64,000 nt of DNA, taken from NCBI GenBank assembly GCA_016873395.1, contig VGXG01000007.1, forward strand, positions 159-64,158. Reading direction: 5' to 3'. A program made the position numbers and the translations under genes. Origin of the DNA: Nitrospira sp. GTDB taxonomy: Bacteria > Nitrospirota > Nitrospiria > Nitrospirales > Nitrospiraceae. Below are positions 23,731-57,558 of the stretch, one piece after another (within the stretch, counting starts at the first letter, position 1; each line of letters starts with the position of its first letter). The notes beneath the pieces are model-generated. The model made no database searches. It was not told where the DNA came from and saw only the letters and a program-made list of their open reading frames with translations.

Positions 23731-23832
23731 TCGTGACGGGTGACACGTGACGAGTGACAGGCGGAAAGAACCTTTCACATCTTCATCAAGATTCCGTTTG
23801 ACTTGTCACGCGTCACACGTCACTTGTCACGC
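23731..23832. repeat. heptad-periodic inverted-arm element (word GTGAC / GTCAC)
   Basis: GTGAC at 23733, 23740, 23747, 23754 and GTCAC at 23805, 23812, 23819, 23826, all exactly 7 nt apart. The two spacer nt are variable. The loop is about 45 nt and contains degenerate TTCAY units. The element fills the pheS-pheT spacer. Confidence 0.85.
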
Positions 23833-23840
23833 ATAAGAAG

Positions 23841-25571
23841 ATGCCGACCATCTCGATCAACCTGAAAGACTTCGAGCAGCTCCTGGGCCGGGAAGCCCTC
23901 GGCGACCGGCCGGTCACGACGGCTCAGCTTGAGGCGTGGTTGCCCTTGGTAAAGGGGGAGCTGAAAGACCATGAATCGGAGAACGGCGAGGTGCGGATCG
24001 AGCTGCAGGACAGTAACCGTCCTGATCTCTGGTCCTGCGAAGGGATCGCGCGGCAAATCCGGATCAAGCTGACAGGGGCCTCGTCCTCCTACCCATTTTT
24101 CAAGGGTACCCAGCCCTCGAAACGCCGCCTCAAAGTCGCCCCCGGCCTGGAGCGGGTCCGGCCCTACGTCGCGGCCTGCACGGCGACCGGCTATCCGGTG
24201 ACCGAAGCCGGGCTGGCGCAGCTCCTTCAGGTGCAGGAAAAGCTCGCCGACATCTTCGGCCGGAAGCGGCATACCGTCTCGATCGGCCTGTACCGTCTGC
24301 CGGCGATCGTGTTCCCGGTCTACTACGACTTGGTCAAGCCGGACGACGCCCGATTCACGCCCCTGGGGTTCGAGGAGAAGATGTCGTTGCGCGAAATCCT
24401 GGCCGTGCATCCCAAGGGGCTGGAGTACGGGTCGCTCATCGCTGGGCACGACCGCCTTCCGCTCTTGCGTGACGAGGAAGGGCAGGTGCTCTCGCTCCCG
24501 CCGGTCATCAACAGCCGCGAGATCGGGGAAGTGCGCGTGGGCGATCAGGATCTCTTCGTGGAGGTCACCGGCACCGATCTGCTGATGGTGCTCCTGACCG
24601 TGAACATCCTGGCGGTCAACCTGGCGGATCGCGGGGCGGCTGTCAAGGCGGTGGAGGCGCTCTATCCCTACGCCACACCCCTGGGCAAGTCGCTCCGGAC
24701 CCCGCTCGATTTCGGCAAGGCGCGCACCATCCCGCTCAAGACCATCGAAACTGCATTGGGCCAGACCATAAAAGCCGAGCAGGTCCGTGAAACCCTGCTT
24801 GCCTACGGCTATGAGGTGACCTCGTCCCGCGACCAGGTCGCGGTCAAGCTCCCTCCCTACCGGAATGACTGCATGCACGCGGTGGATGTGGTGGAGGACG
24901 TGGCGATCAGCCTCGGCTACGGGGAGTTTACCCCGGTCATGCCGTCCCAGTTCACGGTCGGCGGCCTCTCCCGCGTGGAGCAACTGTCCGATCGTGTTCG
25001 CGACTTGATGGTCGGCATCGGCTTTCAGGAAATCATCTCAAACGTCATGGCATCCCGGCCGGAGCTGATCGACCGCATGCGCCTCGCCGGCCGCGAAGAG
25101 GATCGCGTGGTCGAGGTGGACAACCCCATGACCCAGACCTATGCCTGCTTGAGGCAGAGCGTTATCCCGTCCCTCCTGCGGGTGGAGGCGGCCTCCGCTC
25201 GCTCGTTCTATCCGCACCGGCTCTTCGAGGTCGGCGAGGTCGCGCTGGTCGATCCGACGGCGGAGGTGGGCTCCAGGACTGTGACGCTGCTGGCAGCCCT
25301 GATCGCCCACGCCAGCGCGAACTTTTCGGAAATCCACTCTTGCTTGGACCTGCTCCTCTATTATCTGGGCTGCCAGTACCGGCTGGAGCCGATCTCCCAT
25401 CCCTCATTCCTGGAAGGGCGGGCCGGACGGATCACCGTCCAGGGCCAGCCGCTTGGCTTGATCGGGGAACTGCACCCGGAAGTGCTGGAACAGTGGCAAG
25501 TGACGACGCCGGCGGTGGCGTTCGAGCTGGAGGTGGATCGACTGGCGGGAGAGAATGTCGCAAAGTCGTAA
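23841..25571 (+). CDS. pheT: phenylalanine--tRNA ligase beta subunit, archaeal/eukaryal type
   Basis: 576 aa; bacterial PheT is about 790-800 aa. MPTISINLKDFEQLLG... B3/4 and B5-type regions (RPDLWSCEGIAR). No N-terminal OB/tRNA-binding domain of the bacterial type. Confidence 0.9.
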   Translation: MPTISINLKDFEQLLGREALGDRPVTTAQLEAWLPLVKGELKDHESENGEVRIELQDSNRPDLWSCEGIARQIRIKLTGASSSYPFFKGTQPSKRRLKVAPGLERVRPYVAACTATGYPVTEAGLAQLLQVQEKLADIFGRKRHTVSIGLYRLPAIVFPVYYDLVKPDDARFTPLGFEEKMSLREILAVHPKGLEYGSLIAGHDRLPLLRDEEGQVLSLPPVINSREIGEVRVGDQDLFVEVTGTDLLMVLLTVNILAVNLADRGAAVKAVEALYPYATPLGKSLRTPLDFGKARTIPLKTIETALGQTIKAEQVRETLLAYGYEVTSSRDQVAVKLPPYRNDCMHAVDVVEDVAISLGYGEFTPVMPSQFTVGGLSRVEQLSDRVRDLMVGIGFQEIISNVMASRPELIDRMRLAGREEDRVVEVDNPMTQTYACLRQSVIPSLLRVEAASARSFYPHRLFEVGEVALVDPTAEVGSRTVTLLAALIAHASANFSEIHSCLDLLLYYLGCQYRLEPISHPSFLEGRAGRITVQGQPLGLIGELHPEVLEQWQVTTPAVAFELEVDRLAGENVAKS

Positions 25572-25645
25572 AGTCTGAAAGTCTTCAAGTCCTGAAGAGA
25601 GATTTGGACTTTAGGACTTTCAGACCTGCTGACTTTCGGACTGAT
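25563..25645. repeat. 8-nt-periodic inverted-arm element (word AAGTC / GACTT)
   Basis: AGTC at 25564, 25572, 25580, 25588 and GAC(T/C) at 25607, 25615, 25623, 25631, 25639 (period 8). The pheT TAA (25569-71) and the rplT TAA (complement of 25645-47) sit in the outermost units. Confidence 0.8.
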
Positions 25646-26001
25646 TAAGCTGCGGCGTGTTTCGCCAAGGCTGCGAGTTGCTCGAAGCCCGCCGGGTCCT
25701 TGATGGCCATATCCGACAATACCTTGCGGTCCAGCAGGACGTTTGCCTTTTTCAGCGCGTTCATGAACCGGCTGTACGTGAGCCCGTGCGACCGCACCGC
25801 CGCGCTGATCCTGGCTATCCACAAACGGCGGAAGTTGCGTTTGCGTTTCCGCCGCTCGACGTAGGCATAGGTCTGACCTTTATCCACGGACTCCGTCGCG
25901 CTGCGGAACAACCGGCTCTTCGCCCCGTACTGACCCTTGGCAAGCTTCAGCCGTTTCTTTCTTCTCTGCCTGGTCTTCGGACCGCCCTTTACGCGTGGCA
26001 T
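25645..26001 (-). CDS. rplT: 50S ribosomal protein L20
   Basis: [33 protein letters not shown]...[11 protein letters not shown]. Confidence 0.95.
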
Positions 26002-26011
26002 TCTTTTTCTC

Positions 26012-26090
26012 CTAGGCTAGAGGCAAGAGGCTAGTGGCTAGAGGCGGGGGATCGTCCTCCCCTTGCCCCTTGCCTCTCACCGCTCGCCGT
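26012..26090. repeat. heptad-periodic inverted-arm element (word GGCTAG/GGCAAG / TTGCC,TCGCC)
   Basis: GGCTAGA GGCAAGA GGCTAGT GGCTAGA GGCGGGG | atcgt | CCTCCCC TTGCCCC TTGCCTC TCACCGC TCGCCG. Lies between rpmI and rplT. Confidence 0.8.
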
Positions 26091-26096
26091 TCCTGG

Positions 26097-56178: not shown

Positions 56179-56182
56179 AAGG

Positions 56183-56292
56183 GTCACGCGTGAACGGTGA
56201 AACGTAAGACGTGCAACGCGAGGCATAAGCCGTGTGCACCTTCCCTGTCTCCCGCTTTCTTACCTTTCACCGTTCACCGTTTACGTTTCACG
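56183..56292. repeat. heptad-periodic inverted-arm element (word GTGAA / TTCAC)
   Basis: GTCACGC GTGAACG GTGAAAC GTAAGAC GTGCAAC | about 40-nt loop | TTCTTAC CTTTCAC CGTTCAC CGTTTAC GTTTCAC. Confidence 0.85.
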
Positions 56293-56891
56293 GTCTGTAC
56301 AGTCTGAGTCTGGCGGTCATCCTCATGGCTGGCTGCGCGACTTCGCTGAAGCGGGAAGGCCAGTGCCTGGCCAGCCTCACCCCCGACTACCTGCACGCGC
56401 AAGAAGAGTTGGCATCCCTTGAGGTCTCCTGGCACCGATCCATGACCAGGCGCGATGCCGAGCTCAACAGGACACAGCCTTGGTTGCTGGCCAGCACGGC
56501 CCTTCGGCACGACCTGTCTCCCTCCTCTCCACCAGGAGCCCCTCCGCCAGTGCCGGCCCATTATGACTCGGCGGGCAAGGACAGCCGAGAGGCCTACAGG
56601 AGACTCATCGAGGCCAGGTCCCGCCATCAGCCTCTGTTGGCCTGGTACGACAAGGTGTATGAACGGGTGCGCACGCGCACGGATGAAGAAGCGATCCTGT
56701 CCGATGTCCGGCTTTTGCTCATCACCGGCCCCGGCGTGGTCTTCTATCCCTTGATCCGCTGGAACGTCCACTCCGTGTTCTGGGACGGGGCGGACCCGGA
56801 CGCGGAATCAGATCCGGTGACGCGCTATTGCGCCGAGCGTCTGGTGCAGGTCGTCGCCCTTGCTGAAGCGGTCCCAGGCAGTGTTCCGTAG
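56232..56891 (+). CDS. lipoprotein, hypothetical
   Basis: Lipobox VILMAG-C at about residue 33. The first 20 or so codons of the tracked ORF are the right arm of the heptad element, so the true start is uncertain. Confidence 0.45.
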   Translation: MCTFPVSRFLTFHRSPFTFHGLYSLSLAVILMAGCATSLKREGQCLASLTPDYLHAQEELASLEVSWHRSMTRRDAELNRTQPWLLASTALRHDLSPSSPPGAPPPVPAHYDSAGKDSREAYRRLIEARSRHQPLLAWYDKVYERVRTRTDEEAILSDVRLLLITGPGVVFYPLIRWNVHSVFWDGADPDAESDPVTRYCAERLVQVVALAEAVPGSVP

Positions 56892-57141
56892 CGTCATCAC
56901 CGGCGGTTGCCGGAGACCGGAGATCGGCCGGTTGGTTTGCGAGGAGGAATCCGGAAGGGCGGTCAGAAAAACGGTGGAGGGACGTCTCTACAGGAGGATG
57001 AGAGACGTCAGTTACTTCGGGGCACATCCAAAGTAAACCACCTCCACCGTTTCAATCAAACACAGATTCGGCGTTCTTGCAAGGGCCGCTCAATCCGCCC
57101 GTCCCGCGTGAGGGTTGAGAGGGCCCTTGCGTCAGACCGTC

Positions 57142-57462
57142 TCAGTGAGAGGCGGTCTGCTGAGGCCAGAATTTGTGCCGGATCTGCGGAAGCTGGACGT
57201 TCTCGAAGTTCGGGATATCGTAGAGGCAGCGGTCGATGGTGTGGACTTCCTCCGGCGTCAGTTCCAGCACCACGCTTTTCTTCCAGAACTGGTCCAACGT
57301 GAAATAGTCACCGGACTGCGGCTTCTCGGCCAGCAGGGCCTGCATCTTCTTGAACCCCTCGGTATCCACCCCCGGGATGCGGCCATGGTTCTTGTCCACG
57401 CACCATTTGAGGACTTCCGCGATCCCATACATCGTCAATGCGATCTTCACCTTCTCCGTCAT
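57142..57462 (-). CDS. hypothetical protein (106 aa)
   Basis: ORF with ordinary composition. GGAGGA lies 5-6 nt upstream of the ATG. No family recognised. Confidence 0.5.
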   Translation of the reverse strand: MTEKVKIALTMYGIAEVLKWCVDKNHGRIPGVDTEGFKKMQALLAEKPQSGDYFTLDQFWKKSVVLELTPEEVHTIDRCLYDIPNFENVQLPQIRHKFWPQQTASH

Positions 57463-57493
57463 GGGCGTCCTCCATACTAAGCTTGCTAGAGAG

Positions 57494-57558
57494 TAGTCAG
57501 TTTTCAGTCATCAGTCTTCAGTCATGAAACTGATAACCGAAAACTGAGGACCGACAAC
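57494..57558. repeat. heptad-periodic inverted-arm element (word TCAGT / CTGA,CCGA)
   Basis: TCAGT at 57497, 57504, 57511, 57518. CTGA/CCGA alternate at 57530, 57537, 57544, 57551. Confidence 0.8.

Follow-up and report, generated by a model that had tools for sequence, protein, structure and literature searches.

A 64-kb stretch of Nitrospira DNA (contig VGXG01000007.1, positions 159–64,158; here called the window) contains, in the spacers between its housekeeping genes, a dense set of hairpin elements in which an array of tandem 7-nt units is followed by a second array of the reverse-complement word. The periodicity of these arrays far exceeds chance and the observation is genuine, and comparison with related genomes revealed that ∼0.2 substitutions per neutral site suffice for the replacement of whole elements. 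It is considered, with moderate confidence, that the elements are clade-amplified dispersed hairpins resembling repetitive extragenic palindromes (REPs), with heptanucleotide-microsatellite arms, which are co-transcribed with their operons and held to pair between the stop codon of one gene and the ribosome-binding site of the next. The source population of the window is a Nitrospira from Lake Tanganyika metagenomes (lake water). As six independent contigs (from JGI, ENA, and Logan assemblies) carry the window sequence at 99.8–99.95% identity, the element-rich sequence is not an assembly artefact.

Periodicity and architecture of the arrays

A self-match scan of periods 3–14, with a three-unit window and 5 of every 7 positions matching (for period 7, 21 nt with at least 15 matches), gave 30 period-7 segments in the window compared with 1.1 in dinucleotide-preserving shuffles of it, an excess that had been anticipated in the original prediction, made from the letters alone. 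Period 7 was the sole period enriched, the others (4–6 and 8–14) lying at or near the shuffle level, and 28 of the 30 segments fall in non-coding DNA, which makes up 11% of the window. At almost all the sites given in that prediction, Tandem Repeats Finder detected arrays of period 7 or 14, often with the units repeated as 14-nt higher-order blocks, and GTGAC at 23733/40/47/54 and GTCAC at 23805/12/19/26 lie exactly as claimed. The window arrays are heptanucleotide tandem repeats in the usual sense (a 7-nt head-to-tail unit in at least three copies, above chance). After merging, all 25 arrays lie between 23 and 57.6 kb, with 0 on either side, the near-absence from the first 23 kb being as described earlier; within 23.7–57.6 kb, ∼17 of the 21 spacers longer than 40 nt hold an element, consistent with the claim that nearly every such spacer is occupied. 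When spacers of at least 30 nt were counted from the spacer list, arrays were present in 19 of the 28 co-directional ones and in 2 of the 9 divergent or convergent ones.

The element-rich part codes for pheS-pheT (archaeal type), thrS-infC-rpmI-rplT, a sulfate-assimilation operon, mrp with a PCP_red gene, yebC-ruvA-ruvB, and pheA-hisC-aroF-tyrA-aroA-cmk-rpsA-sppA-ihfB. At least 17 elements are comprised of two inverted heptamer arrays between genes. The 5' arm begins 0–7 nt past the stop codon or includes it, the TGA stops of trpD and tyrA being themselves array units, and the 3' arm ends 0–25 nt ahead of the start codon, leaving the Shine-Dalgarno sequence free.

The units belong to a few words. 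Family A has nnGTGA(C/A/T) in the 5' arm and its complement, of GTCAC type, in the 3' arm; family B has TCAG(T/C)nn followed by nn(A/G)CTGA; and family C has GGCnAGn followed by its complement, with GGCTnAT, again with a complementary 3' arm, as a relative of family C. When the 5' arms of 15 elements were aligned without gaps to the reverse complements of their 3' arms, 323 of 451 positions were identical. The mismatches are concentrated on 2 of the 7 phases, at which the two arms are complementary at chance level only, and the elements pair at the same 5–6 of every 7 positions. The proposed unit of five conserved and two variable nucleotides was confirmed, with the correction that in GGCnAGn the two free positions are separated and form no single 2-nt block. 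The stop triplets that had been noted in the repeat words were borne out.

Folding of 22 spacers, with mononucleotide-shuffled spacers as controls, placed most of them 3–6 standard deviations below the shuffles, with the predicted shape of a rod of 5–6-bp helices, here interrupted by 1×1 or 2×2 loops every 7 nt. Inverted arms had been claimed at 22 or more sites, and nearly all arrays are indeed partnered, but four sites carry a single arm (26317, 33021, 34308, and 40330; earlier given as 26316, 33031, 34313, and 40334). The distance between arms ranges from 3 to ∼170 nt rather than the 0–45 nt first proposed: the arms at 44562 are ∼170 nt apart, and the sites earlier given as 45981 and 36316 are nested doubles. 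Three nested double elements were found in all (36274–36437, 44562–44790, and 45988–46087), and one site, at 25562, uses an 8-nt unit. None of the elements matched any family at the gathering threshold in a scan against Rfam 15, where the sole matches in the window were tRNA and a group I intron. The sites are as follows, with predicted folding energy (ΔG) and z score against shuffles where given.

23731–23834, pheS-pheT spacer: family A, GTGA-first; GTGAC ×4 arm, 44-nt loop, GTCAC ×4–5 arm; arms match at 24/31 positions; ΔG −49, z −5.7.
25562–25640, convergent pheT/rplT spacer: 8-nt period, AAGTCnnn ×4 then GACTTnnn ×4; z −5.6.
26011–26092, rpmI-rplT spacer (genes on the minus strand): family C, GGC-first; GGCTAGn/GGCAAGn ×5, then CTTGCC/CTCGCC ×5; z −5.0.
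26317–26341, infC-rpmI spacer: weak single arm, GCTGnnn ×3; fold not significant, z +0.4.
30431–30497, rrf2-sir spacer: family B; TCAGC ×3 and GCTGA ×2 within an AAGAAGC...GCTTCT outer stem; head AAGAAGCCAT; the orthologue in a related locus (L209) has more units.
33021–33052 (+), sir-cysH spacer: single arm with units GGCTAGG, GGCAAGC, GGCAAGG, and GGCTATA; the first unit is the last sir codon, GGC, plus the TAG stop, whose position is conserved in 12 orthologues.
33792–33884, cysH-dsrE spacer: TCGTCAC ×4, then ATGACGn ×4; the sole family A element with GTCAC first.
34308–34340 (+), dsrE-trpD spacer: single arm, GGCTnAT ×3–4, head GAGAAGAGCT.
35391–35465, trpD-cysD spacer: TGAGTTn ×3, with the trpD TGA stop in the first units, then AACTnAn ×5.
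36274–36437, cysD-cysN spacer, nested: outer arms of CTGAACG type (36274–36298) and CGTTCAG type (36415–36437); inner hairpin 36316–36398, TCAGT ×5 and ACTGA ×5.
38285–38398, after the cysN stop: AGCTAAT/GGCTTAT ×5, then GCCATTA ×5; head GAGAAGAGCT.
38455–38541, mrp 5' leader, downstream of a motif at 38411–38443: family C; GGCAAGn ×5, then CTCGCC ×5; z −4.1.
39470–39541, mrp-pcp spacer: family B; TCAGT ×5, 3-nt loop, ACTGA ×5; z −4.8; ends 12 nt ahead of the start codon with GGGGAG between.
40330–40364 (+), after the pcp stop: single arm of GGCAAG type ×4, directly abutting an ordinary intrinsic terminator (40367–40396) with its T-run.
42305–42412, yebC-ruvA spacer: family A; GTGAC ×4, 47-nt loop, GTCAC ×4.
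44562–44790, ruvB-pheA spacer: outer TCAGC arm 44567–44588 and GCTGA arm 44767–44787, with other repeats nested in the loop, including a C-first palindrome at 44622–44676; head AAGAAGCCAT; ΔG −133, z −10.5.
45988–46087, pheA-hisC spacer, nested: outer arm of GTGAAG/GTGAGA type with a degenerate partner; inner hairpin TCAGT ×2 (46019–46036) and ACTGA ×2 (46041–46066).
48224–48312, aroF-tyrA spacer: family A; CGTGAAG ×4, then CTTCACG ×4; z −4.0; tyrA, if called from its first ATG, starts within the 3' arm, and its match to the protein family begins at residue 24–28.
49190–49283, tyrA-aroA spacer: GTGATGA ×3, with the tyrA TGA stop in the first unit, then CATCACC/CATTACC ×5 up to the aroA ATG.
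54775–54862, sppA-ihfB spacer: family B; TCAGC ×4, then GCTGAC ×5.
56183–56292, after the second PCP_red gene: an arm of GTGAACG, GTGAAAC, and GTAAGAC and an arm of CGTTCAC type ×5; the three unlike units each match their own partner unit (22/27).
57494–57562, in the divergent spacer 57463–57942: family B; TCAGT ×4, then ACTGA/ACCGA ×4; z −3.8.

The arrays also touch the coding sequences around them. The trpD (34338–35402) and tyrA (48252–49196) frames extend into arrays, giving short lineage-specific C-terminal tails, and the first-start open reading frame (ORF) calls of tyrA, dsrE (33867), and the ORF at 56232 start within 3' arms and are probably too long; in practical terms, such hairpins can mislead gene-start calling and add C-terminal tails, as for trpD and tyrA. 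The two paralogous PCP_red (protochlorophyllide reductase B C-terminal) genes, at 39553–40329 and 55177–56178, are each flanked by heptad hairpins, and the first stands beside mrp in 85 of 86 loci. Upstream of mrp, the promoter-like motif at 38411–38443, GGTTTGAC(T/G)C-N-GAAA-N-CTGTG(T/C)TACGGT, recurs in the cysN-mrp spacer of most Nitrospiraceae loci (L007–L053 and L206–L210) and stays constant while the hairpins on both sides of it swap between species.

Elsewhere in the window, the PheS and PheT of this bacterium (22153–25571) are archaeal in type (NF003210, TIGR00471). An HNH_5 endonuclease ORF (13687–14553), a DUF4258 ORF (40549–40872), and a ribbon-helix-helix (RHH) antitoxin and MazF/PemK toxin pair (61909–62465) have no obvious connection with the repeats. 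An initiator-type tRNA-Met (CAT), the halves of which lie at ∼18901–18935 and ∼18600–18645, has its anticodon loop split by a group I intron (RF00028, 57.3 bits) at 18676–18874 on the minus strand; ARAGORN made no call of this tRNA, the gene for which is just upstream of and divergent from fmt (19020–19997).

Turnover and constraint among relatives

The comparative set, with one genome per species, comprised 80 Nitrospiraceae loci with conserved gene order, and closer relatives were retrieved via Mrp homologues at 93–97% identity (loci of the L206–L210 type); L-numbers denote the orthologous loci or contigs compared with the window, L001–L006 being contigs of the same population. In most of the 80 species, N. 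moscoviensis included, the same spacers are short and empty. Among these relatives the mrp-pcp spacer has a median of 27 nt (stop codon, ∼12 nt, GAGAGGAG, ATG), pheA-hisC a median of 5 nt (2–4 nt in L012, L023, L046, and L049), and trpD-cysD a median of 16.5 nt (0–3 nt in several close ones), and 0 arrays were found in 21 kb of N. moscoviensis. At a strict threshold, array density is ∼10 per 10 kb in the window population, 1–6 in a handful of related species, and 0 in the rest. The closest relatives (Mrp 93–97%) are also array-dense, at 3.4–10 per 10 kb. Because most relatives have short or empty spacers and the closest ones are dense, the elements are insertions or expansions of a sub-clade into ancestrally tight spacers.

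Divergence from the window at 4-fold sites is 0.20 for L206 and L208, 0.36 for L209, and 0.47 for L210. At a divergence of 0.20, only 1–2 of 9 spacers retain the same element (trpD-cysD, and the outer arms of cysD-cysN), the other seven holding a different family or one arm only. In the mrp-pcp spacer, for example, where the window has TCAGT/ACTGA, L206 has TCAGC/GCTGA and L208 a single GTGAAAn arm, and at the position of the GGCAAG element in the mrp leader a TCAGC/GCTGA hairpin is found in L206, L208, and L008. The outer CTGAACG/CGTTCAG arms of cysD-cysN are common to the window, L206, and L208, with a loop that is empty in L206, contains a TCAGT hairpin in the window, and in L208 one of TTGAGTT; hairpins thus arise anew within the loops of older ones. 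An element that is retained differs between species by whole units: the dsrE-trpD array of L209 is one 7-nt unit shorter than that of the window, other gaps are of ∼7 or 14 nt, and decaying arms are present in L007.

Within the population, no array length difference was found in the six independent contigs L001–L006 (∼36 kb, a small sample), and unit-number polymorphism of the kind that defines contingency loci was thus not seen in these six. The sole indel among them, at ∼1950 of L002 (∼30505 of the window), is a 10-nt tandem duplication, GAGGGTTCAA, and not a heptad. This duplication, present in one Lake Tanganyika sample, falls right where sir, the gene for sulfite reductase, has its ribosome-binding site and start.

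Other elements share these spacers. Hairpins with an 8-nt unit (AAGTCnnn first, GACTTnnn second) are found at 25562–25640 of the window, in trpD-cysD of L008, L012, and L209, and in dsrE-trpD of L208; they follow the same logic of a 5-nt core and fixed arm order as the heptads, and the spacer occupied differs by species. A MITE-like element (MITE, miniature inverted-repeat transposable element), with CAGGATGCTGAAAAAGGCC...GGCCTTTTTGAGCATCCTG ends, fills some of the same spacers in L017, L018, L023, L049, and L076, and a fragment of an element with CAGGATGCTGAAAAAGGCC/GGCCTTTTTGAGCATCCTG-type ends follows a beta-helix gene at 13597–13612 of the window.

Conservation of the arms, which the original prediction had asked for in close relatives, was evaluated in nine orthologous pairs of elements from the same family. 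Differences occupy 48 of 404 paired positions (11.9%) and 71 of 211 unpaired ones (33.6%; Fisher p = 4e-10), an approximately threefold slower rate at paired positions, although the nine pairs overlap, and the structures were predicted from one aligned member and the alignments were core-anchored, both of which inflate the contrast. In trpD-cysD of L208, 4 differences were observed over 65 aligned nt (∼5/70 with flanks), or ∼7% compared with 20% at 4-fold sites; three of the four are at unpaired positions (variable phases, loop, flank) and one is paired. These comparative data favour a pairing constraint, by which selection would hold the paired phases while the unpaired ones drift.

Several matches connect different loci of the window. 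The head AAGAAGCCAT is common to two family B elements (30431 and 44563) and GAGAAGAGCT to two GGCTnAT elements (34306 and 38285); both had been pointed out before, with the second copy of GAGAAGAGCT misplaced at 38287. The elements at 23731 and 42305 are 92.6% identical over 27 nt that include variable positions, and 22-nt matches at 95% connect 33015 with 38445 and 34300 with 38283. In view of how many comparisons were made, an estimated p of ∼0.01 makes these matches suggestive of shared descent. Against pure copying, the arrays of several species keep register with the GGC-TAR that natively ends sir, and in array-poor species the mrp stop codon lies in mini-palindromes such as GTGACGTCAC. 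Local birth and spread between loci may both occur.

Arm order, mechanism and alternatives

Because a palindrome reads alike on both strands, the order of the arms is an intrinsic chirality with no orientation to transcription. In the window, 6 of 7 family A elements are GTGA-first, all of family B are TCAG-first, and all of families C/D are GGC-first, and the same arm orders are found in other Nitrospiraceae. A metagenome scan for GTGACNN ×4 returned at least 119 contigs with GC of 0.38–0.68; as both strands were searched, it is unbiased for chirality. Among the matches listed, 136 GTGAC ×4 arrays had a GTCAC ×2 partner within 150 nt downstream in 25 cases and upstream in 3, and adjacent array pairs were inverted in 38 cases, direct in 11, and neither in 76, with GTGA first in 18 compared with 1. 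Over all words in these listed matches, which come from unrelated contigs, the 5' arm core has more G than C in 48 pairs compared with 8 (p = 5e-8), and in ∼22 compared with 6 when GTGA words are left out; in the Nitrospira loci the count is 11 to 5. A keto-rich (G+T) 5' arm was tried as the general rule and is weaker than the G>C rule.

An unrelated family of GC-rich palindromes, CCCCCCTCACC...GGTGAGGGGG, at 44622–44676 and 60906–60958, has the C-rich arm first, one copy being nested in the loop of the 44562 element and the other lying between convergent genes. A repeat search at seed 9 gave no C-first palindromes in the window, and it is folding and exact-word search that reveal them. Since these palindromes are C-first, the G-first rule is not a property of all hairpins in the window.

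A mechanism consistent with these data can be outlined. The elements would be co-transcribed with the operons and fold as long interrupted stem-loops, in which selection would keep the pairs and leave the unpaired phases to drift. The fold would hold stop codon and ribosome-binding site next to each other at the stem base, hiding an insert of 60–110 nt, and this juxtaposition would explain how inserts are tolerated where ancestral spacers measured 0–30 nt. The stop-rich words would close all six reading frames, and with the G-rich arm first the C-rich arm would never be single-stranded on a nascent transcript in either direction, which would avoid Rho loading. Any positive role, such as mRNA stabilisation or insulation of cistrons, would be REP-like and secondary. 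The elements, whose arms gain and lose whole units of 7 nt and sometimes 14 nt, would grow by slippage and nesting, and a founder pair of units with two unpaired phases would have that pattern copied by slippage. A trans-acting enzyme and gene conversion are candidates for the spread of copies, as is their rebirth on the spot through slippage and fold-back. The earlier suggestion of hairpin-templated slippage survives in part: slippage agrees with the 7-nt indels and 14-nt repeats, but templating of one arm by the other does not agree with variable positions that are complementary at chance level.

A number of observations weigh against co-transcribed, selected REP-like hairpins, in addition to the inflation of the rate contrast described above. 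G-U-compatible mismatches are not enriched in the sense direction (21, compared with 39 in the antisense direction) and the fold is as stable in one direction as in the other, for which reasons a constraint at the RNA level is not demonstrated; a DNA-level hairpin accounts for the pairing data equally well. Pairing beyond the arrays, between the stop and start regions, was not significant (permutation p = 0.15), and four sites are single-armed. Pairing alone does not explain why a few words (nTGAn, TCAG, GGCnAG) recur at different sites and in different species, nor the GGCnAGn helices of just 3+2 bp. As for amplification, no near-identical pair of whole elements was found in the window, no target duplication flanks filled compared with empty orthologous spacers, and no mobilising gene was found in the 64 kb: among the ∼55 ORFs of the window annotated with NCBIfam and Pfam, no integrase, transposase, or REP-associated tyrosine transposase (RAYT) is present, which leaves the HNH_5 ORF, the RHH and MazF pair, and the DUF4258 ORF as the only candidates there.

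It is unlikely that the arrays are a neutral by-product, with nothing selected, of heptanucleotide slippage (as a general replication bias of bacteria) and fold-back template switching in permissive non-coding DNA. Among the long simple sequence repeats of many prokaryotes, heptamers are the most frequent, in the account of Mrazek 2007 given within PMC4679880, and the 7- and 14-nt steps, the decaying arms of L007, and the fast turnover all agree with such a process, as do arrays in register with native stops (sir GGC-TAG) and the short GTGAC/GTCAC stop-codon palindromes of array-poor species. Slippage without selection sits poorly, however, with units that hold 5 positions while 2 are randomised, with paired positions changing three times more slowly (p = 4e-10), and with arrays that are stable within the population. 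Non-complementary variable positions in the two arms indicate that any fold-back copying was not recent, and the chirality biases (18:1 and 48:8 among the metagenome matches listed), the limited number of word families, and heads common to different loci also speak against it.

Double-stranded DNA sites for a nucleoid-associated or global regulator, in which inverted arrays are the half-sites of a large symmetric operator, were proposed by the Geobacter authors for their own repeats (PMC2700814). Applied to Nitrospira, this explanation is quite unlikely. It would account for a sequence that is kept within an array beyond what complementarity demands, for the recurrence of few word families with a chirality fixed per family, and for the non-contiguous conserved positions of GGCnAGn; ihfB, at 54877, adjoins one element, which is regarded as coincidence. 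On the other hand, with at least 4–5 words per genome and quite other words in other contigs, many proteins would be needed, and the same spacer carries different words at 0.2 neutral divergence while gene order and the promoter motif are constant. A 7-bp spacing would turn each successive site by two-thirds of a helical turn, the arms are separated by anything from 3 to ∼170 nt, and most sites lie within operons, away from promoters.

The arrays could also be read as single-stranded RNA by a periodic RNA-binding factor (S1, a cold-shock-domain protein, or one like HutP/TRAP) that tunes downstream translation, with the opposite arm as a mask. In favour of this reading, one cold-shock domain covers ∼7 nt. 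A translational role of this type is the proposal made for TAACTGA repeats (PMC4679880), and, like those of the Beggiatoaceae, the family B 3' arms (nnACTGA) stand directly before the Shine-Dalgarno sequence or start; CTGA heptads, moreover, recur in three phyla in the same orientation. Such a role is nevertheless decidedly improbable, given that families A and C place other words beside the start codon, that the words at a given gene are not conserved among close relatives, that the Beggiatoaceae repeats are direct (169 sets compared with one inverted; PMC4679880), and that no clade-specific candidate factor was identified.

Intrinsic terminators or attenuators that partition operons, the latter a role proposed earlier, are very improbable: strong hairpins do stand right past stop codons and one single-arm array abuts the true terminator at 40367–40396, the only ordinary one there, but the terminator scan found no T-run after any heptad hairpin, its weak match at 44575–44596 being solely to a small inner hairpin of the 44562 element, and the elements lie inside conserved operons where ancestral spacers of 0–30 nt were probably translationally coupled (pheS-pheT, trpD-cysD, pheA-hisC, tyrA-aroA). 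Two further candidates were discarded. A link to the 16S 3' tail (GGUGAUC) fits only part of family A, and an attC/integron origin was rejected because R-box cores are absent and the housekeeping genes concerned are syntenic.

Comparison with known systems

The nearest textbook relatives named at the outset, the short tandemly repeated repetitive sequences (STRRs) and REPs, proved to be well chosen. STRRs are heptanucleotide repeats of heterocystous cyanobacteria and were reportedly described by Mazel in 1990. Like them and the long simple sequence repeats (LSSRs), the Nitrospira arrays are tandem 7-nt units in non-coding DNA, with several words per genome and slippage as the presumed driver, whereas STRRs and LSSRs are direct arrays of largely perfect units, so that inverted pairing and the 5+2 pattern fall outside their description. 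The STRR-proper words (CCCCAGT, TTGGTCA, and CAACAGT) were not matched, those of the window being nnGTGAC, TCAGTnn, GGCnAGn, and GGCTnAT in a Nitrospira host. Arrays of other words abound in low-GC metagenome contigs, for example L204 (GATTGCG/AATCCGC and CGGAATG/ATTCCGC), L107, L119, and L193, some with inverted partners.

REPs, together with bacterial interspersed mosaic elements (BIMEs) and REPINs, resemble the Nitrospira elements in being extragenic imperfect hairpins that are abundant in operons, are lineage-specific, and tend to follow stop codons; REPs are co-transcribed, as the Nitrospira elements would be. The E. coli REP consensus has its G-rich arm first. REPs, however, are 20–40-nt units conserved throughout, with a GTAG-type cleavage motif and a partner RAYT gene, whereas the Nitrospira elements share only 4–5-nt cores, have periodic arms, and are accompanied by no RAYT in the 64 kb. 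Conservation of the whole palindrome, as in REPs, was not observed, the best matches between elements being 22–27 nt at 92–95%, and the marks of a MITE, target-site duplications and near-identical copies, were likewise not found.

Intergenic TAACTGA heptamers lying a short way upstream of start codons have been described from marine Beggiatoaceae and also from some cyanobacteria and from Bacteroidetes (MacGregor 2015, PMC4679880). They share with the Nitrospira arrays the 7-nt unit, the CTGA core, stop triplets, 2–6 copies, an intergenic position, and a patchy distribution, and they too occur in ribosomal-protein operons, mostly a few nt before start codons. They differ in being one word in perfect units without a hairpin partner, the Beggiatoaceae having 169 direct sets and one inverted; in the window, only scattered TAACTnA/AAACTGA units were found (35429–35465), and partners are present at nearly all sites.

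The combination of variable word, fixed period, and inverted arms had been thought undescribed, which proved incorrect. Class 3 sites of Geobacter metallireducens (Gmet_I301–I308; Aklujkar et al. 2009, PMC2700814, Additional file 9) number eight pairs, in each of which two runs of about five tandem [AC]T[TC]CTGA heptamers occupy opposite strands, 70–115 bp apart, between co-directional genes such as moaA/mosC and proB/proA; their authors read them as sites for a global regulator or proteins of the IHF/HU type. At least 17 elements of the window are built in this way, as two arrays of about five heptamers on opposite strands within ∼100 bp. Class 3, read on the plus strand, and family B are alike in having TCAGnnn first and nnnCTGA second, with the same core and chirality, and both kinds of unit have two variable positions; other Geobacter classes have 8–9-nt units, comparable with the 8-nt variant at 25562 (PMC2700814). 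Against the class 3 consensus MTYCTGA, family B has the CTGA core and the TCAG-first order but different flanks (nnACTGA), and families A and C do not match. Geobacter belongs to a different phylum, with 8 listed pairs of one word in a 4-Mb genome compared with ∼20 elements of at least four word families in 34 kb of Nitrospira, and its description came without comparative, folding, or turnover analysis. A literature search found no paper on heptamer repeats in Nitrospira.

Heptad and 8-nt palindromic arrays could tentatively be viewed as one cross-phylum class with a common generating or reading machinery, although this is unlikely. Its signature may consist of a fixed chirality (the G-rich arm leading, GTGA-first at 18:1 among the metagenome matches listed, and TCAG-first in Nitrospira and Geobacter), a 5-nt core with 2–3 free positions, birth at stop codons or hairpin loops, and replacement within ∼0.2 neutral substitutions. 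The machinery may be a hairpin-targeting single-stranded DNA mobilisation system that copies the spacer positions unfaithfully, or else a conserved intercistronic device that couples termination to the next initiation and hides the insert from Rho and RNases.

Why 7-nt repeats dominate the simple repeats of bacteria, and what STRR and TAACTGA arrays do, are questions that have stood since 1990, 2007, and 2015. The Nitrospira clade offers a dense natural experiment, with empty, single-arm, full, and nested spacers in the same operons at 0.2–0.7 neutral substitutions from one another, in which birth, growth, replacement, constraint, and the chirality rule become directly measurable. If hairpins do preserve translational coupling over inserts of 60–110 nt, they would amount to a compact and portable intercistronic module. 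Taken together, the paired heptad architecture has a precedent in Geobacter, and its dense, fast-evolving Nitrospira form is new.

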